DNA from: an uncultured Planctomycetota bacterium
GTDB taxonomy: Bacteria; Planctomycetota; B143-G9
Length of the DNA: 64,000 nucleotides
Direction of reading: 5' to 3'
Assembly (NCBI GenBank): GCA_964571525.1
Contig: CAZNBY010000006.1
Location: 13,773-77,772, forward strand
Position 1 is the stretch's first letter. Each line of letters opens with the position of its first letter. The translations under genes and the position numbers were made by a program. Positions 41,695 through 64,000 of the stretch are shown here, in pieces. The notes beneath the pieces are model-generated. The model was not told where the DNA came from. It saw only the letters and a list, made by a program, of their open reading frames with translations, and searched no databases.

Positions 41695-41696
41695 TT

Positions 41697-45960: not shown

Positions 45961-47051
45961 CTTTTGCTCCCCGAGCTTATACGCTCTATTAATTCTTTTG
46001 CGACGCAATCAGCCGCGTCTGGCTTTGCAACTGCTTTCATTGCATTTGTCATATCCTCGCGCTCCGCTGGATCGTGGGAAATGCTTTTCAATTCCTCTAT
46101 CAGCTTGGCCGAGGTAAGGTGTTTTTCGTTTAGCACTTTGACTGCCGACTTCGCACGCAGCACTTCTGCATTTGCAGCCTGATGGTTGTCTGCAGCGGTC
46201 GGCAGTGGAACAACGACTGATGGCACGCCTGCCAATGCTAATTCTGCAAGCGTGACTGCGCCAGCTCGCGTCAGTGCCACAGTCGAACAGCGATATATGT
46301 CAGCCATTTGGTCGGTATAGGCATAAACCTCGCAGTTAGGTTTTCCCGAATAAAACTGCTTGGCTGCATCATAATCGAGCTTGCCGGTGATGTGTATTAA
46401 TCTAAAGCCCGGAAATTCAAGCTGCAACTGCGGATACGCTGCTACAATAGCCTTGTTGAGAGCGCGAGCACCTTGCGAACCGCCCAAGACCAACAAACAT
46501 TCGCCCTTACCGAGGTCTCGGGTATGTTCGCGAGCTAACTCACCGACTATCTTCGAACGCAACGGCACACCTGTTTTTACAAAAAAGGCGCGCTTCGAAA
46601 GATAATCTCGCGCCTCTGAAAAGTTTGAAAACACGCACTTGGCTTTGGATGCAAACCACCTTGTTACTGAACCCGGTATCGCGTTAAGCTCAAGCAGAAA
46701 GTACGGAATCCCCTTGATTCTTGCTGCGACCAAGGTCGGAACTGATGCGTAACCGCCAAGCCCAAACACAGCGTCCGGCTTTCGTTCGTTGAACATCTTC
46801 AGCACTGCGGGGACAGATACAACAGCTCCAAATCCACGACGCACCACTGGAAGAAGGCCTCCAGATACTCGCTTCATGCCATTCGATTTGTATGTAATCC
46901 CCTCGCGCGGGACAAGTTCGCTTTCAAGTCCTCCCTCTGCGCCAATCCACATTACATCACAGCCTTGCTTCACGAGGCTCTCTGCAATAGCAATACCAGG
47001 GGTGATATGCCCCCCAGAACCTCCTCCAGCAAGGACAATCAGCTTGTTCAC
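45957..47051 (-). CDS. murG: UDP-GlcNAc:lipid I N-acetylglucosaminyltransferase
   Basis: MNKLIVLAGGGSGGHITPGIAIAESL. Confidence 0.9.
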   Translation of the reverse strand: MNKLIVLAGGGSGGHITPGIAIAESLVKQGCDVMWIGAEGGLESELVPREGITYKSNGMKRVSGGLLPVVRRGFGAVVSVPAVLKMFNERKPDAVFGLGGYASVPTLVAARIKGIPYFLLELNAIPGSVTRWFASKAKCVFSNFSEARDYLSKRAFFVKTGVPLRSKIVGELAREHTRDLGKGECLLVLGGSQGARALNKAIVAAYPQLQLEFPGFRLIHITGKLDYDAAKQFYSGKPNCEVYAYTDQMADIYRCSTVALTRAGAVTLAELALAGVPSVVVPLPTAADNHQAANAEVLRAKSAVKVLNEKHLTSAKLIEELKSISHDPAEREDMTNAMKAVAKPDAADCVAKELIERISSGSKR

Positions 47052-48157
47052 AACTGCACTCCCGAATTGAGCCGTGCGCCTAATTGTTCAGGTGCGCTTT
47101 CAAGCTCACTTACTCTGTCAATAGACATAAGTATTCCAACACCGACAAGCATAAAGGCCATTGCACTGCCTCCAGCAGATACGAATGGCAACGCAATGCC
47201 CTTATTTGGCAGAATTCCGGTAACGACACCAAGATTTACAAAAGCCTGCAATCCAATCATTGTCGTAATACCACAGGCAACAAGCATGCCATACATATCT
47301 CGTGCCCTGGTTGCAATTGAGATGCCTGTCAAAACAAAAGCTATGTAGCAAAAGACGATTATCAAGGTGCCAATAAGACCGGCCTCCTCACCGACTACCG
47401 CTAAGGCGAAGTCTGTGGTGGCAAGAGGAACATAGTGCAGCTTTTGTATCCCGTCACCAAGACCAGTGCCTGTTACACCACCAGAGCCAAGCGCGATCAG
47501 AGCCTGCTGTACCTGATAGTCGTGTCCGCCACCCACAAATGTTTTAAGTCTCTCACTGACATGTCCGAAATTCATCAGCATGAAGGCACCGGCAACAACA
47601 AGCAAGACCACAAAGGTTGGCAAGAGATGCATTACTCTGAAACCAGCGACAAGCAACATGCCAAGTATCACGGTTCCTAACAGAATCGTTGTACCAAGAT
47701 CAGGTTCGACTGCAATGCAGGCAAGAAGCACTGTCGCCCAGGCGACAGCGGGAACAAGACCATGCCAATACTCCCTTACGCGCTCTTGCTTTCTGCAAAA
47801 GAAATCGGCAAAAAAGAGAATAAAGACCACCTTAGCCAATTCAGATGGTTGAAATGAAAGAGGACCCAATAGGATCCAACGCTTTGCGCCATTAATGCGG
47901 GCACCAAAGATAAGGACGCCGACAAGCAGAATCACCGCGACAATAATCATTGGGATTACATAGGGGCGTATGTTGCGATAGTCAACAAACGACAATGCGA
48001 TCATCGCACCAAGCCCGACAAGCAGGCTTATCACATGCTTTGCGACAAGCCATAGCTGACTTGATGAATCGGCAGTTGAAGAAAAGGCGAAAACGATACT
48101 AATCGCCAGCAGGAACGAGACTATTAAGAATATCTTATGCCGGGATTGAATCGTCAT
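47048..48157 (-). CDS. ftsW: SEDS-family peptidoglycan glycosyltransferase FtsW
   Basis: 10-TM SEDS architecture, PNKGIALPFVSAGGSAM. Confidence 0.85.
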   Translation of the reverse strand: MTIQSRHKIFLIVSFLLAISIVFAFSSTADSSSQLWLVAKHVISLLVGLGAMIALSFVDYRNIRPYVIPMIIVAVILLVGVLIFGARINGAKRWILLGPLSFQPSELAKVVFILFFADFFCRKQERVREYWHGLVPAVAWATVLLACIAVEPDLGTTILLGTVILGMLLVAGFRVMHLLPTFVVLLVVAGAFMLMNFGHVSERLKTFVGGGHDYQVQQALIALGSGGVTGTGLGDGIQKLHYVPLATTDFALAVVGEEAGLIGTLIIVFCYIAFVLTGISIATRARDMYGMLVACGITTMIGLQAFVNLGVVTGILPNKGIALPFVSAGGSAMAFMLVGVGILMSIDRVSELESAPEQLGARLNSGVQL

Positions 48158-48161
48158 GATT

Positions 48162-49271
48162 TCACCTTATCTTCAGCGTTCCCAACGCCAAAAGAGCGAG
48201 AAAGATGCCGATTATATATGCGCGCGTGACAATCTGTGACTTGCTCCACCCTACTCGTTCAAGGGTGTGATGTATAGGCGCAATAGGGAAAAAGCGTTCA
48301 TGCGTTATTTTGTACATGCCGCGCTGGATAAGGGATGACAAGAACTCGATGATGAACAGTGTGCCGATTATCAGCATCACTACCTCGAGTTTTGAGACAA
48401 GCCCAGCAAAACCGAACAGGGCACCGAGCGTAAGCGAACCCGTGTCGCCCATATAGACAGCGGCAGGCGATGCGTTATGCCATAAGAAGCCAAGACAGGC
48501 TCCAGAGATTGCAGCCATCAACACAGCGACCTCTCCTACGCCCGGAACGAAGACAATATACAGGTAAGATGCATAATCCGCACGACCCGCTATGTAACAA
48601 GCGACTCCGAGCGCAAGCGCGCCAATGGCGATAAGACCTGATGCAAGACCATCAACACCATCAGTTATGTTGACGGAATTCGACATAAGGAAGATTATTA
48701 CAAGGAAGACAATCGCATAGAAGCCGCCGAGATATATACCAAGGTCTTTTTTGAACGGAAGCCATATTGTGTTAAGCTCGCGCATTGAACCGAGGAATTG
48801 GTACAGGTATGCAAGGACTATGGCGGTTACAAGAAGCCCGAGAAAGATCTTAGAGAACTCTGACATGCCTTTCTTAGTGCGCAGCTTTTTAAGATCATCA
48901 GCAAAACCAAGAGCGCCAGTCAACAGCATGAGCAACAAACCTGCAATAATGTACTGGTTGGATAAGTCACCTGCTAACAGCATTGCACCAAGTATGCCAG
49001 CAATAATCGCAAGTCCACCCATCGGGGCTACATTGTGAGGTTTCTTTTCGGCTGCAGTTGCGCTGCCATCCTTTACGAATTGCTGAATGTGCTCAAAATC
49101 CTCCCAGTTATGCTTTTCTGCAAGGGAGCGACGACGGAAGAATTGAACCAGCAAATTGGTTAAGAATACCGAGACGAGGAAGGCCACCACAGCCGCAATT
49201 ATCATGCGGAAGGTGATGTAGCTGAAAAGCGCTTGTTTAAGTATGCCGATGTCGTGCAGCCAAGCCAGCAT
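48162..49271 (-). CDS. mraY: Phospho-N-acetylmuramoyl-pentapeptide transferase
   Basis: Polytopic. DDLKKL and NSVNITDGVDGLA motifs. Confidence 0.9.
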   Translation of the reverse strand: MLAWLHDIGILKQALFSYITFRMIIAAVVAFLVSVFLTNLLVQFFRRRSLAEKHNWEDFEHIQQFVKDGSATAAEKKPHNVAPMGGLAIIAGILGAMLLAGDLSNQYIIAGLLLMLLTGALGFADDLKKLRTKKGMSEFSKIFLGLLVTAIVLAYLYQFLGSMRELNTIWLPFKKDLGIYLGGFYAIVFLVIIFLMSNSVNITDGVDGLASGLIAIGALALGVACYIAGRADYASYLYIVFVPGVGEVAVLMAAISGACLGFLWHNASPAAVYMGDTGSLTLGALFGFAGLVSKLEVVMLIIGTLFIIEFLSSLIQRGMYKITHERFFPIAPIHHTLERVGWSKSQIVTRAYIIGIFLALLALGTLKIR

Positions 49272-49291
49272 TTTACCCCCCGAACGCTACC

Positions 49292-50686
49292 CTATTCCTG
49301 CCCGTATTGCTTTTTAAGAGCCCTGATGAGAAGAGAGACCGTGTCTTCAAGCTTCATAAAGCGCGAGCCTTTTACAAGAACCGCACCGCCACCCTCAATA
49401 CTCTCTACGATATGATTGACCAATTCAGTTCGATCTGTCGCCTCGAAATGCAGCGCAGTCTTGCCCTCGACCTTTTTGAATGCTTCAAGTGTAGCTTTAA
49501 CCTCGCTGCCCACACCAATAAGGGTATCAATAGAGGACTCGGCAAGCTTGTCACCAATTTCTGTATGATACCGCGCACTCTCGCTACCAAGCTCGTTCAT
49601 ATCGCCCATAATCACGATTTTGTTCGGTGAAGGAATCTCTGAGAAATATCGGACTGCCGCTGCCATACTTGAAGGATTTGAGTTGTAGCAATCGCTTATT
49701 ACTACCACTGGCCCAACATAGAAAAGGTTGCTGCGCATAGGTGGCGGAGTGAAGCCACGCAGGCGACGGGCAGAACGAGCCACATCAAGGTCAAGCCCCT
49801 TCACAACAGTAAGAGCGGCAAGCGCGTTGTAGATGTTGTGCACACCGCCCATCGGCAAAGCTGTTTGTACATCTGAAATGGTAAAATAAGTTGATGCCGT
49901 TTGCGATGCGACTTCAAGCGGTTTCATGTCAAGTTCTTCGCGGTTGATTCCGAATGTGAAAACTGGCACTTTAGACATCGCCTTAAGCTCTTCGAAGTTC
50001 GGATCATCACCGTTCAATACCGCAAATCCATCGCTGTTGACGGACTTTAGGAGCTCACCTTTCGTTGCGACTATGTTGGCTTGACTTTTGAATCCTTGCA
50101 AATGAGCAATGCCGATGTTTGTTATAACAGCGACATCCGGCGCTACTACTTTCGCAAGGGATGCAATCTCGCCGGGATTAGAGGCGCCAATCTCAATTAC
50201 GGCGAAATGATGGTATCCGCGAATTTCAAGCAAGGACAGAGGAACACCGACATCGTTGTTATAGCTTTTAACCGAAGCAACTGTTGGCCCGACAGCAGAT
50301 AGTAACCAGCGGAGTATTTCCTTTGTTGTTGTCTTGCCATTCGTGCCAGTAACGGCTATCACTTTTAAGTCTTTGTGTTTACGCCGCCAGAAGCCAGCGA
50401 GGTTCATCAGCGCCTTGCGTGTATCATCAACCTTGATTATAAAGAAATCAGAATCATCAACATCCACATCTTTCGAAACCACAGCACCCAAGGCGCCCTT
50501 TTCATGGGCTTCCTTTACATAGTCGTGGCCATCGTAGTTTGCGCCCTTTAGAGCAACAAATAATTGGCCGGGTCCCATTGCGCGCGTGTCTGTTGCGATG
50601 CCGAAGAAGGTGCAAAGGCACCCGTCGAGCATCTTACCACCGGTTGCTTCAAGGACTTCGTCAACGGTTATTTCAAATCTTTCCAC
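49292..50686 (-). CDS. murF: UDP-MurNAc-tripeptide--D-Ala-D-Ala ligase
   Basis: GTNGKTTTKE P-loop. DCYNSNPSSM matches the MurF DxYNANP motif. Confidence 0.85.
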   Translation of the reverse strand: MERFEITVDEVLEATGGKMLDGCLCTFFGIATDTRAMGPGQLFVALKGANYDGHDYVKEAHEKGALGAVVSKDVDVDDSDFFIIKVDDTRKALMNLAGFWRRKHKDLKVIAVTGTNGKTTTKEILRWLLSAVGPTVASVKSYNNDVGVPLSLLEIRGYHHFAVIEIGASNPGEIASLAKVVAPDVAVITNIGIAHLQGFKSQANIVATKGELLKSVNSDGFAVLNGDDPNFEELKAMSKVPVFTFGINREELDMKPLEVASQTASTYFTISDVQTALPMGGVHNIYNALAALTVVKGLDLDVARSARRLRGFTPPPMRSNLFYVGPVVVISDCYNSNPSSMAAAVRYFSEIPSPNKIVIMGDMNELGSESARYHTEIGDKLAESSIDTLIGVGSEVKATLEAFKKVEGKTALHFEATDRTELVNHIVESIEGGGAVLVKGSRFMKLEDTVSLLIRALKKQYGQE

Positions 50687-50689
50687 AGC

Positions 50690-52135
50690 TCAACTCCTGC
50701 CGTTTATCGCTTCTAAAGCGACTTCGCGGTCATCGAAATGGATTGTTTTGTCAGAGAATATCTGATAGTTCTCGTGCCCTTTACCAGCAACAAGAACGAT
50801 ATCGTCTTCACCTGCGTTCCTCACCGCATGCATGATTGCATCGGCTCGAGATACGACTGTTTCAATTCGCGATCTATCGGTTATACCGGTCAGAATCTCG
50901 GCGATGATTGCTTCCGGATCTTCACTTCGAGGATTATCTGATGTAATAACGACCTTATCCGCTAATTTTTCTGCCGCTGCACCCATCATCGGGCGCTTGC
51001 CTCTATCGCGATCTCCTCCACAGCCAAAAACCACATGGAGCTTATTGTGCGGCAGTTCCTTCAAAGCTCTGAGAGCGTTGGAAAGCGCGTCGTCGGTATG
51101 CGCATAGTCAACATACACACGCGGACGGCGCGGCGCAACGCGTTCGAGACGACCGGGCACGCGATGCATATTTTCAATGCCATTCTTTACAGCATCGGAT
51201 GAAACACCAAAACCGTATGCAAGCGTCGCGACACCCAACACATTGAAAGCGTTAAAGCGACCAACAAGTGGGCAGTGTATTTCGACCCGCCGTTCGCCGT
51301 ACAACATGGTCAGCTTTGTGAAGTCGGCATCAAGTACAACTCCATCAAGCTGTACTGGACCTTTAAGTCCAAGCCCGAACGGGATAACGCTGCCGGAAGC
51401 CCTGCTCGATATAAAGGGGCCCCATTTGTCCGTCATATTTATTGCCACAATGCCGTCAGGTTTTACCAGTTCGAAAAGCTTCGCCTTTGCCGCTGCATAA
51501 TTTTCCATCGTCTTGTGGTAGTCAAGATGATCGCGTGTCAGATTGGTGAAGATCGCGCCGTCGTAGTTTATTCCGCCAATTCTCTCTTGTTCAAGCGAAT
51601 GTGAGGAAACCTCCATCACCACCCACTTATCGCCTTCAGCAACCATCTGTGATAGAAGCTCATAGAGCCTTATTGGATCGGGTGTGGTGAGTTTTGAAGG
51701 AAACGATTTTCCGCCAACGGTGTAGGAAATTGTTCCTAACAATCCTGCGTTTGCGCCAGAGGCTTGAAGCACTGACGCGAGCAGGTATGTTGAAGTGGTT
51801 TTTCCATTTGTACCTGTTATTCCTGCTGACTTAAGCGTCTTTTCAGGATGACCATAATATGCGGATGCAGCCTGCCAGACAGCACGACGAACATTCGGCA
51901 CAATCACACGGGTAACTCCGTTGATCGGTATCGGCTTACTTGAAACAAGACATGTGGCACCGTTCTTGACCGCGTCGGCGAAGTAAGACGCGCCATCAAG
52001 CCGAGTGCCCTCAACGCCGAAAAAGACGAAATCACGCCCGACAAGACGCGAATCGGTCGCAAGACCCTTCACGACTGAGTCGGGACACTCAGTTACACAC
52101 GCGTCTGCGTGACTGAAAAGCTCCGAGATACGCAT
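50690..52135 (-). CDS. murE: UDP-MurNAc-L-Ala-D-Glu--2,6-diaminopimelate ligase
   Basis: TGTNGKTTSTYL, TNLTRDHLDYH, VDYAHTDDAL. Confidence 0.85.
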   Translation of the reverse strand: MRISELFSHADACVTECPDSVVKGLATDSRLVGRDFVFFGVEGTRLDGASYFADAVKNGATCLVSSKPIPINGVTRVIVPNVRRAVWQAASAYYGHPEKTLKSAGITGTNGKTTSTYLLASVLQASGANAGLLGTISYTVGGKSFPSKLTTPDPIRLYELLSQMVAEGDKWVVMEVSSHSLEQERIGGINYDGAIFTNLTRDHLDYHKTMENYAAAKAKLFELVKPDGIVAINMTDKWGPFISSRASGSVIPFGLGLKGPVQLDGVVLDADFTKLTMLYGERRVEIHCPLVGRFNAFNVLGVATLAYGFGVSSDAVKNGIENMHRVPGRLERVAPRRPRVYVDYAHTDDALSNALRALKELPHNKLHVVFGCGGDRDRGKRPMMGAAAEKLADKVVITSDNPRSEDPEAIIAEILTGITDRSRIETVVSRADAIMHAVRNAGEDDIVLVAGKGHENYQIFSDKTIHFDDREVALEAINGRS

Positions 52136-52150
52136 GTTGTTTGCCTGTTG

Positions 52151-53866
52151 CTAATCTGTTAAAGCACGAGCGTCTGGAGGAACGCCCAAGTATCGAAGGG
52201 TTCGGCACACTACTTCGCGGACGGCTGTCCCTGCAACTGTTCCGCCGTACTGCGCCTTCTTTGGTTCGTCAAGGCTCACTAAGACAACAATCCTCGGATT
52301 TTGTAGAGGTGCAAACCCGATGAAAGAACTGAGCGTTTTGCTCCAGTCGTAGCGACCATTGACTACCTTTATCGCCGTACCGGTCTTGCCTGCAATCGCG
52401 TAATCTTTGTTCAACGCGTTTTTACAAGTACCGTCGGTTACCACCAGTCGCAATATTTTCCGCATTTTTTCGGCTGTCTCTTGTGAAATTGCCCGGCTCC
52501 TGCCACGCCCATCCTTATGAACTGGAATCTTGTTGCCCGAGCTATCAACAATGTAGTTGACCAGCGAAGGGTCAGGCAATGTGCCATCCGTCGCAATCGC
52601 GCCGTATGCGCGAACAAGAGCCATAGGAGTTACAGAAATCTCATAGCCGAAGGAAATAGAAGCGACCGATTTTTTAGACCATTTTGAAGGCGGGTAGAGC
52701 CATGAAATCTGCTCTCCCCTTAGACCGAGCTCTGTCTTTTGTGTGAAGCCGAAGTTGACAAGCGTTTCATATAGAGCCTGTGCACCCAAAGCCTCACCAA
52801 TCTTCGCTGCACCAACATTTGATGATTTCGCTATGACTTCACCAACAGTAAGATTTCCATAACGATGATTGCCAGCATCCTTAATAACGCGTCCGTGAAG
52901 TGCATAAGCGCCATTCTCACAATAAATAACTGTATCTGGCGACATTACACCACGCTCGATTGCGCCTGCTGCGCAAAACGCTTTTGCCATCGAGCCTGGT
53001 TCATATATATCGCTGATCACGCGGTTGCGGAAATTAGCAGTCGGGTAGAGATTGTACTTGTTAGGATCGAAGAAAGGCCATGAAGCCATAGCAAGGACCT
53101 CGCCCGTACGAACATCCATAACAGCTGCCACACCACCGGAAGGACGGAACTCCTCACAGGCCTTTTCAAGTTCTTCTTCAAGTATATTCTGAATCCACAG
53201 GTCCAGCGTGGTGACAATGTCATATCCCTTGCGTGGATCAACAGAGGATTCTTTAGGAGAGCTTATCAACTTGCCAGTCGCATCGCGAAGCATCTCCACA
53301 TAACCATCCTTGCCCTTAAGATATCGGTTGTATTGTAGCTCAATGCCTTCACCACCATCTCCATCACCGTTGCAAAATCCAAGGAGTTGGCAGGCGGCTC
53401 TTCCGTTTGGATAGAATCTTTTAGGGTCATGCGAAAAGTCAATGCCCGGAATGTTCGCCGCACGCAACTTTCTTGCGGTTTCACCGTCGAGGTGGCGAGC
53501 GATTCTCACATATTTGGGACCGGTTACAATCATGCGATAGAAATCAGCGGTCTTGCCTTCAAGAACCGTTGCTAACTTAACGGCAATTTCGTCGTACTTC
53601 TTCTCGTCAACGGCGGGTTTGTAAAGCCAAACTGATTCTGCATCAATGGAATCAGCAAGTGGTCGAAGGTTACGGTCGAGGATTCTTCCACGAGGTGCAG
53701 GCACAACACGATTGCTGTTGTGTTGCTGTGCAGCAATACGCGCATACTCGTCAGACTGAACAAGTTGTATACGAACAAGCTGCGCGGCGATCAGAAGAAA
53801 CGCCGCGCAGAGTAGTATCTTATAGAAAAGCAGCCAGTATTTTGGCTTAGAGGCATCAATAGACAT
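52151..53866 (-). CDS. ftsI: Division-specific transpeptidase (class B PBP, FtsI-like)
   Basis: N-terminal TM. SxxK (GSMAK), SSN (KSSNVG), KTG (GKTGTA) motifs. Confidence 0.85.
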   Translation of the reverse strand: MSIDASKPKYWLLFYKILLCAAFLLIAAQLVRIQLVQSDEYARIAAQQHNSNRVVPAPRGRILDRNLRPLADSIDAESVWLYKPAVDEKKYDEIAVKLATVLEGKTADFYRMIVTGPKYVRIARHLDGETARKLRAANIPGIDFSHDPKRFYPNGRAACQLLGFCNGDGDGGEGIELQYNRYLKGKDGYVEMLRDATGKLISSPKESSVDPRKGYDIVTTLDLWIQNILEEELEKACEEFRPSGGVAAVMDVRTGEVLAMASWPFFDPNKYNLYPTANFRNRVISDIYEPGSMAKAFCAAGAIERGVMSPDTVIYCENGAYALHGRVIKDAGNHRYGNLTVGEVIAKSSNVGAAKIGEALGAQALYETLVNFGFTQKTELGLRGEQISWLYPPSKWSKKSVASISFGYEISVTPMALVRAYGAIATDGTLPDPSLVNYIVDSSGNKIPVHKDGRGRSRAISQETAEKMRKILRLVVTDGTCKNALNKDYAIAGKTGTAIKVVNGRYDWSKTLSSFIGFAPLQNPRIVVLVSLDEPKKAQYGGTVAGTAVREVVCRTLRYLGVPPDARALTD

Positions 53867-53873
53867 AATTCGC

Positions 53874-54788
53874 CTAACGGCGCTCGAAGAAGTTGATCAC
53901 CTCAACATCGTTCGTCGCCGGCTTTTTTGCTGCTGGTTTTACGGGAGTAGTCGAGCCAGAATCCTTCTTAGCTTCCGCCTGAACCGGTGCCGGTTTGCCA
54001 TCGAGGGGCGGTATGATGAGCTTCATACCTGTCTTTAAAGCATCGGGCTTGGGCAGTACTTTGCGGTTTGCCTCGTAAATGGCATTCCATTTTTTGCCGT
54101 TACCATACACTTTCTCGGCGATCTTCCATAGGCTGTCTCCAGCGACAACTGTATATGTCTCTTGCTTTGGATCAGCATTCTGCATAGCTGGCTTTGCATC
54201 GTTGTTTGTCTTTGCGGTATCAGTAGAGGCTGATTTTTGGTCAGTATTCGATGCAACTTTCGGTGCACTTTCACCCTTCGGTGCGTCAGGAATAATTAGG
54301 GTTTGACCGACCTTTAGCTGGCTATTCTGCGTAAGGCCGTTTGCCTCTGCGATCTTGTTCCACATCGAAGCGCGACCGTAGTACTTCTGAGCTATTACGC
54401 TTAAACTGTCGCCCTTTTGTACTGTGTGCTTAGTTGCAGGTTGCGGCAGGTTTTCGATTGCCTTCGCTGCATCTGCCTCGGGATTCGAGGTTATTGCGGG
54501 TTTATCAGATGGAAGCAAAACTTCGTCGTCATCAATAAGTGACGGCACAGGTGTTACGCCCGAAACAAAGTATGGGTTGTCACGCTTGATTTCAGGAGGC
54601 AGCTTGTAATCATTTGATGGTGTTGAAGCCTCAATGGGCACAAGCACCTCGTCGTTGTCCTCAACAGGAATCTGAGCAACATCTTCAGTATTGCGTCCAG
54701 AATCGCCACTGCCGATGATCACAACAACAGCGATTACCACAAGCACCAATACAAAGACTACCAGCTTATAAACTCTTCCGACATTCAT
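53874..54788 (-). CDS. Membrane-anchored protein with two LysM domains, inserted between ftsL and ftsI
   Basis: HTVQKGDSLSVIAQKYYG...LKVGQTLIIP and YTVVAGDSLWKIAEKVYG...LKTGMKLIIP. Start placed at Met32 to avoid overlapping ftsL; the ORF extends to 54881. Confidence 0.65.
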   Translation of the reverse strand: MNVGRVYKLVVFVLVLVVIAVVVIIGSGDSGRNTEDVAQIPVEDNDEVLVPIEASTPSNDYKLPPEIKRDNPYFVSGVTPVPSLIDDDEVLLPSDKPAITSNPEADAAKAIENLPQPATKHTVQKGDSLSVIAQKYYGRASMWNKIAEANGLTQNSQLKVGQTLIIPDAPKGESAPKVASNTDQKSASTDTAKTNNDAKPAMQNADPKQETYTVVAGDSLWKIAEKVYGNGKKWNAIYEANRKVLPKPDALKTGMKLIIPPLDGKPAPVQAEAKKDSGSTTPVKPAAKKPATNDVEVINFFERR

Positions 54789-54807
54789 AGCTACCTCCGA
54801 AATACCC

Positions 54808-55110
54808 CTACTTACGGACAAAACCCTCGATCTGCGCACCGCTTGACGCATCGAGGAAGTTCTTATCAACCGGACGGACATACGAAGCTGACTTGTCGCC
54901 TAATACGGCCATAATTCGCATCGGTCGTAATTCAGCAGCGACTTCGCTCTTAATCTGCATGTTCGACTTTGAAACATCGTTGATCTCTGCACGCAGACGG
55001 GCGATGTCGTAACCTTGCCGTAGGATCGTGCTGCGTTGGGCAACATAGACCACGGCAAGCAACACGAGCACGACAATCACGATTATGTAGCCGAGCATAA
55101 ATGTTTTCAT
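54808..55110 (-). CDS. ftsL: FtsL-like small bitopic division protein
   Basis: 100 aa, single TM (YIIVIVVLVLLAVVYVA), coiled-coil. Position between rsmH and ftsI. Confidence 0.55.
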   Translation of the reverse strand: MKTFMLGYIIVIVVLVLLAVVYVAQRSTILRQGYDIARLRAEINDVSKSNMQIKSEVAAELRPMRIMAVLGDKSASYVRPVDKNFLDASSGAQIEGFVRK

Positions 55111-55114
55111 TGCA

Positions 55115-56029
55115 TCAGCCTTTCCGAATCGCCCTCAGCATAGCGCTGCGGCTTCTGGGGTTTCTGCGAAGCTCTTCGTCTTTCGCACGGACAGGTTTGC
55201 GGGTGAGTATCTTGGCGCTTTCAAGCGACCCCAAGCGCTTGTTGAACTTCTTTACTATCCTGTCCTCGAGAGAATGAAAAGTTATCGTCACGAGGCACCC
55301 GCCTTTCGATAGCATCTTGTAAGCAATGGGAAGGACTGTTTCGATGTTGCGAAGCTCGTTGTTGACTGCGATTCTCAGCGCCTGAAACACGCGTGTGGCG
55401 CCGGATATCCTTCCCGCTCTCCTTCCTGTAACCGACTCGACTATCTCGCGGAGCTGTGAGGTTGTCGTTATCGGCGTATCTTCGCGCCGTTCGACTATCC
55501 TCGCAGCGATCCTCCTTGACCTCCGCTCATCGCCGAGCGTGTAAAAGATGTCGGCAAGCTCTTGCTCATTACACGAAGCGATAAAATCTGCGGCAGATGG
55601 CGAATCGCTTTGCGGATTGAATCTCATGTCAAGTGGACCCTCTTTTATAAAAGAAAATCCGCGTTCGGGCGTATCAAGTTGAAGGCTTGAACATCCGAAA
55701 TCAAGCAGAATTCCATCGGCCAGACCGTTCGGCAAGAGACTTGCAACCGATTCGATGTCGGTGTAACAGGAATGAACGAGTTTCCAAGGAGCTATGGAGT
55801 CTGAAGACTCCAGTCGCTGAAGTCTATCTTCAGCTATTTGTAAAGCGGCTGCGTCAAGATCGCAGCCGATGACGAAACCTGTTTTGCCTGCCCGCTTGGC
55901 GATTTCTGCCAAGTGGCCGCCTGTGCCCGCTGTGCAATCGAGGTATATTCCTCCCGGTTTAATCCCGAGATGCTCAAGAACCTCGCTGAGTAGCACAGGC
56001 TCGTGATAGCGCTCATTTTGTGTCAACAA
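55115..56029 (-). CDS. rsmH: 16S rRNA (cytosine1402-N4)-methyltransferase
   Basis: HEPVLLSEVLEHL...YLDCTAGTGGH. Confidence 0.9.
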   Translation of the reverse strand: MLTQNERYHEPVLLSEVLEHLGIKPGGIYLDCTAGTGGHLAEIAKRAGKTGFVIGCDLDAAALQIAEDRLQRLESSDSIAPWKLVHSCYTDIESVASLLPNGLADGILLDFGCSSLQLDTPERGFSFIKEGPLDMRFNPQSDSPSAADFIASCNEQELADIFYTLGDERRSRRIAARIVERREDTPITTTSQLREIVESVTGRRAGRISGATRVFQALRIAVNNELRNIETVLPIAYKMLSKGGCLVTITFHSLEDRIVKKFNKRLGSLESAKILTRKPVRAKDEELRRNPRSRSAMLRAIRKG

Positions 56030-56187
56030 ATCGAACCTTAGAACTGAAGACGAATGTATCGCCCTTGACGATTACAGTCGGCTTGAGAATCAGGCCGTTT
56101 TTAACAGCCGTTACGCTTTCGATTACCGCTTGTGTCCTTGTTCTTGCCATAAATCAACTCCCGATATGTCTAAGCCCTTGCTTGGTA

Positions 56188-56751
56188 TCAGTCAGAGTTT
56201 GGATGACGGGAGGGTGGTGATGACCCCCTCCCGTCAAATCCGTCAGCATAGGGCAGGGATTGCATAAGTTTGCCAGCCATCTCTTCTTGATTGAAGTTCT
56301 TGGCCAGATTCTCTTGCTCGATCTGAAAACGCTTCGGTTCCCATGCTTCGAGGAAGAATATCTTGCCTGCAATTAGCAGCTCATCTTGTATATCGGCATA
56401 AGCAAGCAGTTCTTTGGGTACAGTGAACTTGCCAGCCTTGTCAATTCTGGCCGTTACAGCGGAAGGTCCGATATACGAGAACCAGGCGTATCTTTCTTGT
56501 CCGTCAAGCTCGCGAGTGGCGCGCATCACTGTGTGCGCCCAGAGAGAACGCCAGTAGATTGAGAGAGAACGGTTGAAATTCTTTGTGATGACAAGCTCAT
56601 TAGGCTCGCCAGCATCTTCGAGAGAACGGCGTACCGATGCCGGAAGCACGATGCGACCTTGCTCATCGAGCTTTAGTTTCCAGCAACCACTGACAATGAC
56701 CGGAGCCGTTTCTGTCATCTTCTTCTCAACACTTATTGATACTTTAGCCAA
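56188..56751 (-). CDS. mraZ: Transcriptional regulator MraZ (with a C-terminal tail of about 30 aa)
   Basis: Two SpoVT/AbrB-like halves. KLDEQGRIVLPASVRRSL and IDKAGKFTVPKELLAYADI correspond to the MraZ DxxGR motifs. The start may be Met12 (56718). Confidence 0.7.
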   Translation of the reverse strand: MAKVSISVEKKMTETAPVIVSGCWKLKLDEQGRIVLPASVRRSLEDAGEPNELVITKNFNRSLSIYWRSLWAHTVMRATRELDGQERYAWFSYIGPSAVTARIDKAGKFTVPKELLAYADIQDELLIAGKIFFLEAWEPKRFQIEQENLAKNFNQEEMAGKLMQSLPYADGFDGRGSSPPSRHPNSD

Positions 56752-56945
56752 CTTTTTCTTGCAGGTACGCGACTATGATATCACACCACCTTCACTTGTC
56801 AAGAGAATTCCCGAAAAATTTCTTAGTGCACCCACGAAATTTCGAAAGCGGCAAGAGCCCTATCGCAGAAATTTTCAGATATATAGTTTAATTAAGATAT
56901 TGATGCTTATTCTTGGGGAAATTTCGCGCAAAATCACGCAATGAA

Positions 56946-56977
56946 AAGACCGAGCGTGTTAGCGCTCGGTCTTATAT
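56946..56977 (-). terminator. Terminator hairpin downstream of ctp, separating it from mraZ
   Basis: AAGACCGAGCG-tgtta-CGCTCGGTCTT is a perfect 11-bp stem, followed on the minus strand by TTTTCATT. Confidence 0.55.
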
Positions 56978-56995
56978 GACAAACGAAATGGGAAA

Positions 56996-58642
56996 TTAGC
57001 GGGAAATCTGAGGCTTAGATGCGCGACTTTCGAGTTCGAGGCGCATAATTGCTGCTTTGACAACCTCGTCTTCGCGGTCCAGAGCAGGTCTGATGCGGGA
57101 TTGACGGCAATATTCGTAAATAATCGCATGGCGAATCGCGGGCTCAAAGCAATCAGAATTGAACCATTTTTCGCGCGCTGCGCGTTTTTTAAGCGAGGAT
57201 AAGCCTTTAACTGAGCTTATCGAAATCTCGCTTAAAGCGAGGTTTTTGGCGGCTTTCGGCTCTTTCTTTACGAATTTCTGGGCGAATTTGACGGCTTCAG
57301 GCCAATTCGCCGTGCGGGCAAAGGAATTGGTGTTCGAAAGCCGATGGCCATCTTGAATCTGAATATCTGGAAAAACACCAGTTTTGTGAATCGAGCGACC
57401 ACTTGGAAGGTAATATTTCGCCGATGTTAGATACAAGAAGCGCGTGCCCCTTGATGCGGGAATTCCCAAAGGAACCTGCGCGCAACCCTTTCCGTATGAG
57501 GTCGTGCCGATGATAGTTGCGCGATGATGATCTTGAAGCGCTCCGCTTGTCATTTCAGAAGCTGACGCGCTTGCGCGATTTATAAGGCAGACGAGCGGCG
57601 AGTCTTCGAAATCGCTCGGTTTGCCTGGAATAAGCATCGGCACTGCCGTTCCATATTGCTCATTGAACATCTTGAAAATTGTAGCCACCTTCTGCCCTCG
57701 CAAGAACAGGTCGCAGAGATTTACCGCTATACCAGCGTTTCCACCAGGATTGTTCCTAAGGTCAAGAATGAAGGAATTCGCACCCTGCGCTTTCAGCCTC
57801 TTTAGCGCTGAATGTACCATGTTGTCCATGTCGCCACCGAAGATAATGCCACGCACATATCCGATCTCGGGTGTGAGCATCTCTGACATGACCGGTGAGA
57901 TCAACTCCTCATTAGCGTACAGAGTAAATTCGACAGGATATTCCCATCCCTTTCGCAAGACGATTAACCTGAGATCGGTTGGCTTATCTGGCGCAATTGT
58001 TCGAACAAGATCATCTCTTTCGTAATCGGCAACAAGCCTTCCGTTTATTGCGAGTATCTCATCTTCATTTCTAAGGCCAGCATAATAGGCGGGTGAACCG
58101 AAGTTGACCTGAGCAATTGAAATATTGCCATTTGCCATGCGCTGCGGCATGAGACCATATAAGTCGCGCTCACCTGCGTCAATCATGCCGATCAGCCTTC
58201 GGTATTCCTCGATCGTGAAATAGCGTGAAAACGGGTCGTTAAGTGCATGAACAGCAGCCTCAATCAGGGCATCAACCGCGTCGAGCCAGTTTATATCAGC
58301 ATTGCTTACAGCATTCCTAAGTTCAGAAAGCTCTGTCAAGCTTTGAAAATCTGCGGAAAGTAGAGGTTGGAGGGTTGTTTGAGCAAGCTCGCCATTCTTA
58401 TCTGCCCAGGCCTTTAATGCCCTTAAACCTGATTGAGCAAGCAAGGGTTGAGCGGCAGCCTCGTCACCGCGGAAGGTTTGATTGATGAGCCTTATCGAGT
58501 CTGCAACAATATCGAAGAACGAGTCTTTATCGAACTTAACAGTGTGTGTTGGTTTAGTGGTTGTATCAGCTTCTTCTGCTGGTATAGCACAACAGAAGAA
58601 CAGCAGAGCGATCGCAATGAAAATGACAAAAACACCTCGCAT
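56996..58642 (-). CDS. ctpA: C-terminal processing peptidase (S41) with PDZ domain
   Basis: GLRNEDEILAINGRLV PDZ. SFILDLRNNPGGNAG S41 motif. Signal peptide. Confidence 0.85.
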   Translation of the reverse strand: MRGVFVIFIAIALLFFCCAIPAEEADTTTKPTHTVKFDKDSFFDIVADSIRLINQTFRGDEAAAQPLLAQSGLRALKAWADKNGELAQTTLQPLLSADFQSLTELSELRNAVSNADINWLDAVDALIEAAVHALNDPFSRYFTIEEYRRLIGMIDAGERDLYGLMPQRMANGNISIAQVNFGSPAYYAGLRNEDEILAINGRLVADYERDDLVRTIAPDKPTDLRLIVLRKGWEYPVEFTLYANEELISPVMSEMLTPEIGYVRGIIFGGDMDNMVHSALKRLKAQGANSFILDLRNNPGGNAGIAVNLCDLFLRGQKVATIFKMFNEQYGTAVPMLIPGKPSDFEDSPLVCLINRASASASEMTSGALQDHHRATIIGTTSYGKGCAQVPLGIPASRGTRFLYLTSAKYYLPSGRSIHKTGVFPDIQIQDGHRLSNTNSFARTANWPEAVKFAQKFVKKEPKAAKNLALSEISISSVKGLSSLKKRAAREKWFNSDCFEPAIRHAIIYEYCRQSRIRPALDREDEVVKAAIMRLELESRASKPQISR

Positions 58643-59426: not shown

Positions 59427-62400
59427 CTATTGAAACGCCAGCGCTACGCCGCGTTCTGTGACATAGACAACGAGATCAGGTGAAAACAGGGGATCGCAGA
59501 TTATGCGTGAATCAGAATCGTATTTCCATTGTAGGTCGAGCGCTCCGGTATCAGTAAGCTTGAAACAGATAATCGCGCCTGTTGAGGAAGCGCAGTATAG
59601 CTCGTTGTTGAATATGATAGGCTGTGAAGACGCTTTACCGTTGAACGAGAAAGTTGCAGCTATTTTGCTCTCCACAAGATTGATCATTATGATGCGCCCT
59701 GGTTCGCGGTCATCACCCTTCTGCGCTGTGGTTGCAACAATGACGAAGTTGCCAAACTTCACCGGCCTACCCACCACCATTGCTGTTGCAAGACGAATAA
59801 CCTTTACAACAGACAGATCGGCTTTGTTTAGAAGATAGAAGTCGCCAAGCTCGTTGCCAAAGCAAATCGTGTCGCCGAAGATCTCGGGTGTTGCTGAGAT
59901 TGCCGCAGATGATGTCAGCTTTTTCGCGATTGAACCGTCAATCACTGACACCTTATATATGCTAAAATCGCGGCTCGTAAAGTAAATGAATCCTGATTCA
60001 TAAACTGGTGATGACAACACGGGACCCTTGGTTTGTGTGCTCCAAAGCAGTTCGCCTTTGTCTGCGGAAAGACAATACAAGTTGCCGTTCTCGGCTCCAA
60101 ACGCAATTACCTTTTTGCCGTGCTTGGGGCTGTCGAAGATTGCAGGCTCAGACCTAATGAAGTCCTTCACTTCATAATGCCATGCAAGGGTGCGTTTTGA
60201 AATATCAACAGCATATAGATTGCCATCAAGTGAAGGAATGTAAAGCAAACCGCTTGAATAGACTGAGTTTGCTGTTACATCGTGAACTTGTGACTTGTTG
60301 CCGGTAAGCTCTTCGATTGAATATGTCTGCTTTGTCGCTCCGCTGTTGCGATCGAGCACATAGATCGTGCCATTTCTTGTTACGCAATACACATCGTTGT
60401 TGATAAGCAGCGGGCGGGATTCAAATGAGCCTGTCGAGGTCGCTTTCACTCGCCATAAGTGCATTCTTTCAAGTGTAATCCTGTATGTTGGTTTCTCCTC
60501 TGGCATTAGCCGAATCGTAAGAGGCGCAAAACCTCGCGCGGAGACGACGACATCCACCGCTATCTTCTGCTGCAACAATAGCAGTTGCGGAACTTTGCCG
60601 ATCAGCTTGCCGTCAACAGAAACATCAGCATCACTTGGCAAGTTGCAGTCAACATAGACAGGTATGCGGATTTCTGATACCCGCTTGCTTTGCGTGTATG
60701 TGGAAGCCAATGCGGTGACAATGCTATGCGCCTCAGCATGCTTACCGTTTTTCAATGAGTCTTCGAACTGCGATATCATGTCAGTAATAGTCTTGTTAAT
60801 GTTCTTGATACGAGACTCGACTTGGACATAGATACGCTTTTCTTCTTCGAATTCAGACTCCTTCATCAACAAGGCAAGCTGCTCTTCCACCTCTTCGACT
60901 TTCATCCTGCTATCCTCAGCGGGAAGTGAATTCTTAAAGTCATTTGCCTTTTTTATTGCTGCGTTAGTCTTCTTCTTAAGGTCATCCGCAATCCTTTCGC
61001 GACGGTTTCTCTCAAGCTCAGAAAACTCGGTCATTCGCTCCTTTGCTTTTGAGAAAGTTGGGGCAAGCGGATAGTTGAGGATGAACTCCTCAATGCGGTT
61101 CGTTGCCTCAAGGTACTTGCCTTCTTCAACAAACTTCAACGCTTCTTTTTCCGCTTTCGCAAACTCTACGCGGGTATGTACTACATAACCCAGTGCAAGT
61201 CCAGCGACAGAAAACAGCAGAACAAGAAGCACACAGACACGCACGATTTGAAGCTTGCGCTTACGGCGCTTGCCCTCCAAATCAACCAGTTTTTCGAGCT
61301 TGCCGCGGAATTCTTGGTTCTCAGGTGCAATCTGCACCATGCGGTGATATATGTCTATTGCAGCCTTGTAGTTGCCTTGGGATGAGTGAAGAACAGCCAG
61401 TTCTGAAAGGTGGGCAAGCGCAACTTCCTTGCGATTTATGCGAAGCAGTGTCTCAACTAATTCCTCGCGAACACGGATGTCTGACTTGACTGTCTTGATC
61501 AGCTTCTCTGATACCTCGATAAAGAGGTCAGGCTCGTTTTTAGAGTTTATTGACTTAAGTGCAGTACGATATTCCTCGGCGGCTTTATTGGCAGATTTGC
61601 CAGCGACATAAAGGTCTGCCAGCAATACCCTTTCATTGTAATCGCGGGTATCGAGATTGAGTATTTCGGTCTGAACTTCGACAGCCTTCGGATATTCGCC
61701 ACGATCAAAGTAGTACTTCACGACCTCTTTGAAGCGCTCTTTCGATTTGTCTGAATCTCCAATCGCCCGGTATGCCTCTGCGAGCCTTTCGACGACATCC
61801 GGTTGCCAAGCATCGTTTATCAGTACCAGTGTCAGTATAGAGATGCCGTCTTCATAAAATCCGTTGCGTAGGCAATCGTAACCGGTTTGAATCAGTTCGT
61901 TGGTTTCCTTAAGCCGCACATAACCGGTTTTGATAAGGTCTGCAAGAATCTGGCTCGCGATAAAATTGCCGAGAAAAGAGAGAGTGCATATCTTCTTAGC
62001 GTTATTTATGCCGTTTATAAGGCTTACGATTGTCTTCTGTGACTCGTCGAGAACATCATCTTCTGGTTTAACTATAAGGACCGGTATCTCGCGTTCCGAC
62101 GGCAGATATTGGCGAATTCGCGACCATTCGTCAAGGCGCCGCATAGCCTCCATAAGGATGGAGTTTGTATTAAATAGCAAGTTGTACTTGGATATATCCG
62201 CGTCGAAAACTGTATCTACGGGGAATTGCTCGGAGAACTCGAATAGAGCCTCTTGCCATGCAAAAAGCTCGTATAGAGTCTCTTCTTGTTGGAAGCGGAG
62301 CGTCTCGAGAATCTGCTCGCGTGTAAGCAGGTTTGTTCGGACAAGGATGTCACCTAACAGCTCTTTAGTTGTTCTCTGAACAGCAAGGCTTCGCTCAAGA

Positions 62401-62624
62401 TCCTCGCTCGACATCATTCCGGTGCGAAGGAGTATCTCGCCAAACCGTACTTTTGCAGACTTAGTTAAGGCGACTTGACGGATTAGACCGTCTTCGAACA
62501 AGACAAAACCTTCAGAATTTGACTTCTTATTGTAAATAGCAAGAGTACCCGTCTGCCGGTTCATGGAGAGGGTCTGGAAGATGTTGGCAAGATTGAATGT
62601 GTTTAGATCACCTTTAAAGCCCAT
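59427..62624 (-). CDS. PATAN/DUF4388-TPR-TM-PQQ-like beta-propeller protein (bitopic signalling scaffold)
   Basis: N-terminus GDLNTFNLANIFQTLSMNRQTGTLAI...GFVLFEDGLIRQ is a DUF4388/PATAN hallmark. TPR-like helices follow. TM helix VCVLLVLLFSVAGLALGYVV. C-terminal repeats GTIYVLDRNSGATKQ / GNLYAVDISKRTLAW / GNLYCLSADKGELLW are typical of PQQ/BamB-like propellers. Confidence 0.6.
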   Translation of the reverse strand: MGFKGDLNTFNLANIFQTLSMNRQTGTLAIYNKKSNSEGFVLFEDGLIRQVALTKSAKVRFGEILLRTGMMSSEDLERSLAVQRTTKELLGDILVRTNLLTREQILETLRFQQEETLYELFAWQEALFEFSEQFPVDTVFDADISKYNLLFNTNSILMEAMRRLDEWSRIRQYLPSEREIPVLIVKPEDDVLDESQKTIVSLINGINNAKKICTLSFLGNFIASQILADLIKTGYVRLKETNELIQTGYDCLRNGFYEDGISILTLVLINDAWQPDVVERLAEAYRAIGDSDKSKERFKEVVKYYFDRGEYPKAVEVQTEILNLDTRDYNERVLLADLYVAGKSANKAAEEYRTALKSINSKNEPDLFIEVSEKLIKTVKSDIRVREELVETLLRINRKEVALAHLSELAVLHSSQGNYKAAIDIYHRMVQIAPENQEFRGKLEKLVDLEGKRRKRKLQIVRVCVLLVLLFSVAGLALGYVVHTRVEFAKAEKEALKFVEEGKYLEATNRIEEFILNYPLAPTFSKAKERMTEFSELERNRRERIADDLKKKTNAAIKKANDFKNSLPAEDSRMKVEEVEEQLALLMKESEFEEEKRIYVQVESRIKNINKTITDMISQFEDSLKNGKHAEAHSIVTALASTYTQSKRVSEIRIPVYVDCNLPSDADVSVDGKLIGKVPQLLLLQQKIAVDVVVSARGFAPLTIRLMPEEKPTYRITLERMHLWRVKATSTGSFESRPLLINNDVYCVTRNGTIYVLDRNSGATKQTYSIEELTGNKSQVHDVTANSVYSSGLLYIPSLDGNLYAVDISKRTLAWHYEVKDFIRSEPAIFDSPKHGKKVIAFGAENGNLYCLSADKGELLWSTQTKGPVLSSPVYESGFIYFTSRDFSIYKVSVIDGSIAKKLTSSAAISATPEIFGDTICFGNELGDFYLLNKADLSVVKVIRLATAMVVGRPVKFGNFVIVATTAQKGDDREPGRIIMINLVESKIAATFSFNGKASSQPIIFNNELYCASSTGAIICFKLTDTGALDLQWKYDSDSRIICDPLFSPDLVVYVTERGVALAFQ

Positions 62625-62662: not shown

Positions 62663-63157
62663 CTATTCGTTGAACAACTCGTCGAGATGGTTTTTTGCCT
62701 CCGCAGCCATGTCACCAGCAAATTGAGGTTCTTCAGAAGAGCCTCTTGCCAGCACTTCTTCAATCTTACGGGAAACCTCGTTTGCGTATAACCTAACCAT
62801 TCCAATCGTTGTATTGTCATTGAAGAGGATGACGAGCATCGTTCTTTCAGCAATGAGGCTAATATGAATAGATTCTTGCTTGCCCTGATGGAAGAGGACC
62901 GAGAACTCTGGCTCACCAAGCAATGAGGCAACTTGCTTTGTAGAGGCAAAGCTGCCAGCGACAAGCGCGGCAACTGAGGTAATGTCAATGTTCTTGGTTT
63001 CGCCTTTTTTCGTAACAAGATGTCCGTCCACATCAATCAGCAGCGCCGCTGAGGAGCGGGATGCCTCGAGAAAATTAGTGAGAATGCTGTTGATTTCGCG
63101 GATATCGTTTTCGTAGAAGATCAGCCGTCTTTTGCGAAGTTTTTCGGCGTCTTTCAT
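62663..63157 (-). CDS. Roadblock/LC7-domain protein (MglB-like)
   Basis: 164 aa. AALLIDVDGHLV...ITSVAALVAGSFAS pattern typical of Roadblock/LC7. Adjacent to the MglA-like GTPase. Confidence 0.5.
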   Translation of the reverse strand: MKDAEKLRKRRLIFYENDIREINSILTNFLEASRSSAALLIDVDGHLVTKKGETKNIDITSVAALVAGSFASTKQVASLLGEPEFSVLFHQGKQESIHISLIAERTMLVILFNDNTTIGMVRLYANEVSRKIEEVLARGSSEEPQFAGDMAAEAKNHLDELFNE

Positions 63158-63178: not shown

Positions 63179-64000
63179 TTACAAAGACTTTAACAGGATG
63201 AGACCGAGCAGCGCGAGAATACCGACGGCTGCAACGATGATAACAATCCAAAGCCACTTTTTGCTTGAGGGTGCGCTTTGAGCAGCAGGTTGATTTGCTG
63301 GTTGCGCAGCTTGCTTTGGTTTCTGCGGTACTGATGGCTTTGGTGCCGCTTTAGGCGGAGGTGGAGGCGGAGGTGGCGCAGACGGTCTTGGTGATGCAGG
63401 AAGAGGAGTCTGCTTTGGCTGCTCGGGCTTAGGCGGTGCAGGAGCCTTTGGCGCTTCGGGCTTTGAAGTTGCATCAGAAGGTGGTGCAGGAGGTGGTGGA
63501 GCTGAAGGCCTTGGCGGTGGTGGAGCGGAGGCAGGTTTTACTGGCGCACCGGTGGAAGAAGCCTCTTCCTCTTTCGCCTTTCCACCATACTCTTTGTTGA
63601 GCTTGTCGAGCACTAAAACTGCGATTTTCTTAAGGCTTTCAAAAACACCCTTTCCGTTTATCGCGACAGCCCCGCTTGTCGGCACCCCTCTTGGATTCAG
63701 AGTCTTTTGAAGCTCTTCATCCGAAGAAAGGTCTGGCAAGTCCTGCTTATTCCACTGCAATACAAGAGGCAAAGACTCTGGGTCGTATCCGTTCTCTCTG
63801 AGATTCTCATAGAGGTTGTTAAGCGATTCAACATTCTCTTCCATCATCGTGCGCTGGGAATCTGCGACGAACACAACTCCGTCAACTCCCTGCAACACGA
63901 GCTTTCGTGTCGCATTGTAATACACCTGTCCGGGGACGGTATAAAGTTGGAAACGCACCTGCATGCCGGCAACCTTGCCGATTTCGAGCGGAAGAAAGTC
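63179..64000 (-). CDS. MglA-like Ras-family small GTPase with proline-rich linker and C-terminal TM tail. The N-terminus lies beyond the window.
   Basis: [49 protein letters not shown] aligns with MglA FDFLPLSLGE...[34 protein letters not shown]. NKQD G4 motif. Then about 100 aa Pro-rich ([15 protein letters not shown]...) and a terminal TM [22 protein letters not shown]. The frame is open to the window edge. Confidence 0.7.
   Translation of the reverse strand, partial: [273 protein letters not shown]

Follow-up and report, generated by a model that had tools for sequence, protein, structure and literature searches.

The question raised by this locus is whether a MglA-type small GTPase that runs on, past the end of the canonical protein, into a proline-rich stretch and a hydrophobic C-terminus is a genuine, membrane-tethered form of the protein, and what its extension might do. 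The gene lies at the edge of a 64,000-nucleotide (nt) stretch of DNA from an uncultured Planctomycetota bacterium (assembly GCA_964571525.1, contig CAZNBY010000006.1), hereafter called the window. An earlier note on this DNA had described a MglA-like GTPase that is lengthened by a stretch of low complexity and ends in a single transmembrane (TM) helix of the tail-anchor type, a description that was borne out here. Overall, we consider it quite likely that the gene product is a membrane-tethered group-1 MglA, with a flexible linker and a C-terminal anchor, alongside MglB and a partner protein of the PATAN family.

The minus-strand open reading frame (ORF) at 63179..>64000 is a single open frame clipped by the window edge, with about 57 N-terminal residues lying beyond it. 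The complete protein, P0267, encoded on a 106-kb NCBI contig, has 330 amino acids (aa), the final 273 of which are the same as the window translation. In order, the frame in the window contains YTVPGQ, LQWNKQDLP, LDKLNKEYG, a Pro/Ala/Lys-rich stretch, APSSKK and a hydrophobic C-terminus. Since MglA of Myxococcus xanthus stops at residue 195 and its G domain aligns residue for residue with the one studied here, the extension corresponds to residues 197-330; the span to which the earlier note had drawn attention, 63179-63560, is exactly this extension. The part of the gene present in the window comprises three features:

63569..64000, minus strand: last 144 codons of the MglA-type G domain (from translation, alignment to MglA structures and a Pfam Arf match), holding, by translation, the G3 motif TVPGQ, the G4 motif NKQD and the last helix, ...LDKLNKEYG.
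63257..63568, minus strand: disordered Pro/Ala/Lys-rich linker, residues ~197-300 (from composition, AlphaFold2 and homologs).
63179..63256, minus strand: juxtamembrane KK, TM helix, tail KSL and stop codon, forming the putative tail anchor (from Kyte-Doolittle hydropathy, AlphaFold2 and charge bias).

Such an extension could be an artefact, if a frameshift or a mis-assembly in the G-rich tract had joined an mglA gene of ~195 aa to out-of-frame sequence. The tract is indeed of biased composition, as the plus strand, described in the earlier note as GGN-rich, has a GC skew of +0.27 to +0.42 over positions 63200-63600, because CCN codons are here read backwards; short 12-nt repeats within the tract, and ORFs in alternative frames that overlap it, would also fit an artefact. 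However, when the window was aligned to a Logan assembly of another sample (L001), identity was 98.86% over 1488 nt, the Pro-rich tract included, with 17 mismatches, all of them substitutions, and 0 gaps. Two further alleles, P0001 and P0268, likewise encode 330 aa and differ by substitutions only, so that the same frame is found in all three alleles, from three independent assemblies. Moreover, the Pro codons of the linker are mixed (CCA 19, CCT 15, CCG 8 and CCC 4) and tandem repeats, as detected by Tandem Repeats Finder, are restricted to two 24-nt spots; hence, the DNA has no long repeat that would be prone to slippage. Close and distant homologs alike carry the linker in frame, with a TM or an amphipathic helix after it. 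The absence of gaps in the DNA alignment with L001, an independent assembly, together with the conserved architecture, rules out the frameshift that the earlier note had envisaged in the tract, and the chance that the extension is an artefact is negligible. The extension is therefore confirmed as genuine coding sequence.

The G domain was compared with solved MglA structures and with the criteria published for group-1 MglA proteins, which come with a census cut-off of 150-240 aa that left out longer sequences (Wuichet & Sogaard-Andersen 2014, PMC4316618). Residues 3-196 align without gaps to MglA of M. xanthus (5ymx, E 1.5e-70) and of Thermus thermophilus (3t12, E 9.4e-65), with an identity to solved MglAs of 62-64% over the full domain. 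The G1 P-loop, GxxxxGK[ST], reads GPGRSGKT in full-length P0267 and P0001, beyond the window edge, and G19, G21, G24, K25 and T26 are invariant in the 33-sequence alignment (A1) in which invariance was scored. The intrinsic Arg finger is found beside the switch-I Thr in ETDRTLFFDF (R53 and T54, both invariant), and the G3 motif TVPGQ, with the catalytic Gln, is found in the window as YTVPGQVYY, with invariant residues from T78 to Q82. The G4 motif NKxD is present in the window as NKQD (invariant, N141-K-x-D144), and a cognate MglB, a 164-aa Robl_LC7 protein, is encoded 21 nt downstream. Only the length of the protein, 330 aa, falls outside the published criteria, and the size limit is a criterion of that census rather than a biochemical one. 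By its sequence, then, the protein is a group-1 MglA in everything but size, from a phylum of which the reference census names no member in group 1 (PMC4316618).

Scans against Pfam and NCBIfam returned generic Arf and small_GTP matches only, the Arf match being weak (33 bits), and no model for the extended architecture. Many homologs carry the JGI label 'SRP receptor subunit beta'. We rejected this identity for the window protein, as its anchor is C-terminal, no Pfam SRPRB match was obtained and the nearest structures by sequence are MglA proteins.

Beyond the G domain, the linker of 109-112 aa is composed of 35% Pro and 54% Pro+Ala and has a net charge of +9. The earlier note had called it polyproline; it is Pro-rich, but with a longest Pro run of 8 residues the term polyproline does not hold. 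In an AlphaFold2 model built from a 33-sequence alignment, the G domain was predicted with a confidence score (pLDDT) above 90, residues 203-303 were without secondary structure (pLDDT 45-68) and residues 304-329 formed a helix (pLDDT 94-97). The TM segment was assigned to residues 306-327 of 330; the best 19-mer at the C-terminus has a Kyte-Doolittle mean of 3.29, with KK before it and only three residues, KSL, after it. With a single TM segment within ~30 residues of the C-terminus and no N-terminal signal peptide, the protein is predicted to insert into the membrane as a tail-anchored protein.

A C-terminal hydrophobic helix followed by a basic residue is superficially similar to the sorting signals of exported proteins, such as those of the PEP-CTERM or LPXTG type, and PEP-CTERM proteins are numerous in Planctomycetota. 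However, the N-terminus of the window protein has no signal peptide and lines up with that of cytoplasmic MglA from residue 3 onwards, neither a PEP nor an LPXTG motif is found ahead of the helix, and the basic cluster is located on the N-terminal side of the helix. Moreover, sister lineages carry at this position a MinD-like amphipathic helix, which is a device of the cytoplasmic face. Because both a signal peptide and a sorting motif are lacking, this reading was rejected as highly improbable.

The linker and anchor architecture is not restricted to this protein, being kept in hundreds of homologs. Each of the 120 best matches, drawn from a collection of 5.8 billion proteins, exceeded canonical MglA in length, and 115 had at least 300 aa; the earlier note had considered that orthologs might end at the canonical C-terminus, and none of these 120 does. 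A strongly hydrophobic segment follows the G domain in 86-87 of them. When the G domain alone was searched against 1.84 billion representatives clustered at 50% identity, 6566 matches were obtained, the best 150 of which all had at least 244 aa (mostly 300-700 aa), a count that over-represents long forms relative to canonical MglA, since the long forms, with their variable tails, are spread over many clusters.

Two types of membrane-binding C-terminus were recognised among 263 pooled long homologs: a TM segment (137 proteins), and a polybasic stretch followed by a GFFxRLF-type end (49 proteins). Over the 12 residues flanking the TM segment, the mean charge is +1.83 on the N-terminal side versus +0.50 on the C-terminal side, the N-terminal side being the more positive in 99 of the 137 proteins and the C-terminal side in 12. 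This positive-inside bias fits a cytoplasmic G domain. Tails of the GFFxRLF type, such as KKKGFFKRLFGLK in homologs from the FCB group, closely resemble the membrane-targeting sequence of Escherichia coli MinD, KGFLKRLFGG (PMC5471200). The presence of two unrelated membrane-binding devices at the same position is the strongest argument for membrane attachment as the selected function.

The two devices are distributed by taxon, as observed in species-representative genomes, from which 80 loci were compared. A linker and a C-terminal TM segment are encoded by every one of the 13 complete genes from Planctomycetota. Ignavibacteria, Zixibacteria, Fibrobacterota/Chitinivibrionales and one Terriglobales metagenome-assembled genome encode a long linker with, for the most part, a polybasic amphipathic tail, and a TM segment in none. 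Proteins of canonical size (190-211 aa) are found in Gemmatimonadota, Myxococcota, Desulfuromonadota (Geobacter relatives), Acidobacteriota and Bacteriovoracaceae. In a neighbour-joining tree of the G domains, the long forms make up a single clade, within which the Planctomycetota TM forms are one sub-clade. Judging by these sequence comparisons, the gene represents the variant found in Planctomycetota of a large subfamily of extended MglA proteins; in other phyla of the subfamily, a MinD-like polybasic amphipathic helix takes the place of the TM segment.

Several points weigh against the reading of a membrane-tethered protein. Neither a TM segment nor a recognisable amphipathic C-terminus was found in 77 of the 263 long homologs, and membrane binding may thus not be universal. 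Moreover, in 26 of the 137 homologs with a TM segment, this segment is followed by over 35 residues; these are single-pass proteins with an outside tail, not strict tail anchors. The neighbour-joining tree was built without bootstrap and is indicative only.

Some variations on the tail were also noted. In some TM-bearing homologs (P0010, P0012, P0033-P0035, P0042, P0063, P0066, P0072, P0074, P0116, P0119 and P0151) a conserved KKKGC or KKGGC motif directly precedes the TM segment, and its juxtamembrane Cys, on the cytoplasmic side, could be a site of modification or of disulfide formation. A third class, without any membrane element, has a conserved beta-rich C-terminus (...VPV.L.PE.L..G.VLKL.I...RAA; P0040, P0048, P0104, P0115, P0164, P0200, P0212, P0226, P0231 and others); this region (...VVLKLRI...RAA) gave no match in Pfam and is possibly an undescribed C-terminal domain. 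Finally, a P.MAPS.+R or PxPSLKR motif recurs just upstream of the polybasic MinD-like tail (e.g. P0169, P0171, L019, L028, L042, L055 and L068) and may be a conserved short linear motif of FCB-type linkers.

The earlier note had interpreted the Pro-rich segment as a rigid polyproline-II (PPII) rod that would fix the distance between the G domain and the membrane. The linker of the window protein, at 35% Pro and with PPPP and P8 runs, might seem suited to this, as Pro runs favour PPII locally. However, among the 137 TM-bearing homologs the linker ranges from 81 to 410 aa (median 140), with 4-40% Pro and 8-70% Pro+Ala. Even in close relatives, which share 80-87% identity with the window protein in the G domain, linker length varies from 88 to 136 aa, linker identity is no more than 24-36% and the Pro content is 16-38%. 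AlphaFold2 gave this region low confidence and no structure. A rod of fixed length is therefore very unlikely. The sequence of the linker is not conserved, yet a linker is always present in the homologs, and the traits that are conserved are a length of at least ~80 aa, richness in Pro and Ala, and a positive net charge, seen in 122 of the 137 linkers (median +9). These traits fit a flexible, extended, cationic tether and not a ruler. The positive charge also suggests that the linker may lie on anionic lipid and not stand off from it.

Alternatively, the linker might serve mainly as a docking platform for proline-recognition modules and not as a passive tether. It is Pro-rich in most homologs; in the MglA pathway of M. 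xanthus the GYF domain of GltJ binds a proline-rich sequence of AglZ, and bacterial GYF proteins are over-represented in Planctomycetes-Verrucomicrobia (PMC11135422). On the other hand, no conserved short motif was seen in the linkers of the TM class, linker identity is low even among close relatives, and Pro makes up 4-12% of the linker in some homologs. Furthermore, ZnR-GYF proteins are uncorrelated with MglA-MglB operons outside Myxococcales (PMC11135422), and no GYF gene was found among the neighbours scanned. We consider a primary docking role unlikely, if slightly less so than the PPII rod, and retain the flexible tether as the preferred reading.

The genes that follow mglA on the same strand offer candidate partners for the tethered GTPase:

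62663..63157, minus strand: mglB, encoding a Roadblock/LC7 GTPase-activating protein (GAP) of 164 aa (Pfam Robl_LC7; matches structures of M. xanthus MglB over its whole length at E 5.8e-26).
59427..62624, minus strand: gene of a candidate membrane-spanning partner of 1065 aa (from Pfam and NCBIfam matches, TM prediction and motifs).

The mglB start codon is preceded by AAGGAG and lies 21 nt after the mglA stop codon, and a gap of 38 nt separates mglB from the 1065-aa gene. No promoter-like or terminator-like site was found on the minus strand between the three genes, and mglA appears, from this arrangement, to be co-transcribed with mglB and the PATAN gene. Against the NCBIfam MglB model, the mglB product scored 80 bits, far under the curated cut-off of 200. 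In the 1065-aa protein, a PATAN domain (DUF4388) comes first; TPR repeats follow it, then one TM helix at residues ~460-490 and, last, a beta-propeller of the PQQ-like type. The helical insert of its PATAN domain (residues 56-115) contains two tandem MshEN-type motifs for cyclic di-GMP (c-di-GMP), RFGEILLRTGMMSSEDLERSLAVQ and LLGDILVRTNLLTREQILETLRFQ, at residues 60-83 and 89-112 (window 62289-62447, minus strand). Given these motifs and a score of 48.5 for NF053729 (cut-off 38), the partner of MglA may be a c-di-GMP receptor.

On related contigs (L001 1556-2965; L082-L085), mglA is always preceded by genes for a TPR protein (348-364 aa) and for a second small Roadblock/LC7 protein (115 aa), in the region that here lies beyond the window edge. 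The best PDB matches of the latter are archaeal or bacterial Robl proteins, not MglB. By eye, the C-terminal third of the TPR protein is also Roadblock-like (LRFLQGVVIADLDGNVLG...), and the module may thus hold three Roadblock-fold proteins. Synteny is kept in L001 and L082-L085 as well as in the Planctomycetota and FCB loci, and in L084 and L085 mglB is again followed by the 1065-aa gene. Across the 80 loci, the long forms have a Roadblock gene upstream of mglA and mglB downstream of it, and in most cases a PATAN protein is encoded no more than 6 kb away, whereas in canonical forms mglB lies upstream of mglA. The PATAN-MglA/MglB neighbourhood as such was already known (Makarova 2006, as cited in PMC4316618).

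Further along the minus strand, the operon is followed by genes of cell envelope synthesis and division:

38930-58642, minus strand: CYTH protein, S41 peptidase and full dcw cluster, on the same strand as, and directly downstream of, the mglA-mglB-PATAN operon.
38930-40183, minus strand: ftsA-like gene, the last of the dcw cluster (SHS2_FTSA match).
35986-38844, minus strand: PAS histidine kinase, next after the ftsA-like gene.

The dcw genes are arranged in the order mraZ, rsmH, a small ftsL-like ORF, a LysM protein, ftsI, murE, murF, mraY, ftsW, murG, murC, murB, ddl, a TPR protein and the ftsA-like gene; at this locus, no ftsZ was found at its usual position after the latter. The adjacency of operon and dcw cluster is kept in the close clade only, L084 showing it up to ftsI, where the contig ends, and it was not found within 6 kb in the 80 genome loci. 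As the system lies directly upstream of the dcw cluster in this lineage, it could, as part of the tentative wider proposal given below, act in envelope growth or in the polarity of the division site.

Among the closest known systems are MglA/MglB of M. xanthus (MXAN_1925) and T. thermophilus, with which the window protein shares TVPGQ, the Arg finger, Gln82, NKxD, an adjacent Roadblock MglB and a nearby PATAN protein (PMC4316618). It differs from canonical MglA in its 330 aa, as opposed to 195, in its 109-aa disordered linker and C-terminal TM helix, and in the position of mglB downstream and not upstream, with an extra Roadblock gene upstream. Canonical MglA is soluble and moves between the poles, whereas the window protein should be confined to the membrane. 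The extended MglA proteins of Ignavibacteria, Zixibacteria and Fibrobacterota belong to the same G-domain clade and share the Roadblock-mglA-mglB order, the nearby PATAN protein and the long P/A-rich linker, but their polybasic and amphipathic GFFxRLF end implies a peripheral, potentially reversible binding and not an integral TM anchor.

Actinobacterial conservons (CvnA-D) likewise bring together a MglA-family GTPase, a Roadblock protein and a membrane-spanning sensor in a membrane-associated complex (PMC4316618). In conservons, however, the GTPase is soluble, belongs to group 2 and has no Arg finger, and the membrane partner is a histidine kinase; the window GTPase would be self-anchored, with a PATAN-TPR-beta-propeller protein as its putative partner.

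The earlier note had regarded a protein-encoded anchor as unusual in comparison with the lipidated small GTPases of eukaryotes. The comparison is a fair one, yet it is generally known that eukaryotes also have GTPases with anchors encoded in the protein itself, namely the N-terminal TM helix of SR-beta (the beta subunit of the SRP receptor), the C-terminal tail anchor of Miro/Gem1 and the N-terminal amphipathic helix of Arf/Sar1. These follow the same logic, in which a Ras-superfamily G domain is held at the membrane by a TM or an amphipathic helix and no lipid is involved. The window protein has no specific sequence kinship with them beyond the G-domain superfamily, and it differs in its long disordered linker and MglB-type GAP; moreover, the anchors of SR-beta and Arf are at the end opposite to that of the window protein.

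Taken together, these features suggest a catalytically complete MglA-type GTPase that would be on a permanent tether at the cytoplasmic membrane, on its cytoplasmic side. The tail-anchor helix would insert N-in, leaving the G domain in the cytoplasm and only KSL outside, and the disordered, P/A-rich and polycationic linker of ~110 aa would join this anchor to the G domain. Fully stretched, the linker would span ~34 nm (109 x 0.31 nm, by calculation) and its average reach should be much shorter, so the tether would limit the distance between G domain and bilayer to between a few and ~30 nm, a range in which the G domain could meet membrane-bound regulators and effectors. Cycling between GTP and GDP would be controlled by MglB, and perhaps also by the extra Roadblock and TPR proteins, and the switch would operate in two dimensions, at the membrane. 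The GTPase may act on or with the membrane-spanning PATAN-TPR-beta-propeller protein, which could feed signals from the periplasm and from c-di-GMP into the switch. Covalent anchoring would preclude pole-to-pole hopping via the cytosol, and any spatial patterning would thus need lateral diffusion and capture.

On a larger scale, Planctomycetota and several FCB-group phyla might run a so far unrecognised, membrane-resident MglA/MglB system, in which a GTPase anchored by its own integral TM segment or MinD-like amphipathic helix is wired to a c-di-GMP-binding, periplasm-sensing PATAN-TPR-beta-propeller receptor, as a prokaryotic analogue of receptor-coupled signalling by membrane-bound small GTPases. 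We put this forward as a tentative proposal that is, as it stands, rather improbable.

The extended class of MglA is real and widespread and, as it seems, undescribed. No description of an anchored MglA was found in the literature searched, of which subscription papers were mostly not a part, so that an earlier mention is possible. As the reference census dropped sequences of more than 240 aa (PMC4316618), the extended class would have been removed from it. The mechanism itself would build in a simple way on principles already known: tail anchors, targeting sequences of the MinD type and, in eukaryotes, the anchors of SR-beta, Miro and Arf.

MglA is the model bacterial Ras-like polarity switch, and current models assume a soluble protein that exchanges between the poles via the cytosol. 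A phylum-wide, self-anchored subfamily would mean that in many bacteria this switch operates under other spatial conditions, and it bears on the route by which small GTPases became attached to membranes before, or without, lipidation. The locus also provides a defined five-gene module for experiments in Planctomycetota, whose cell biology is poorly understood.

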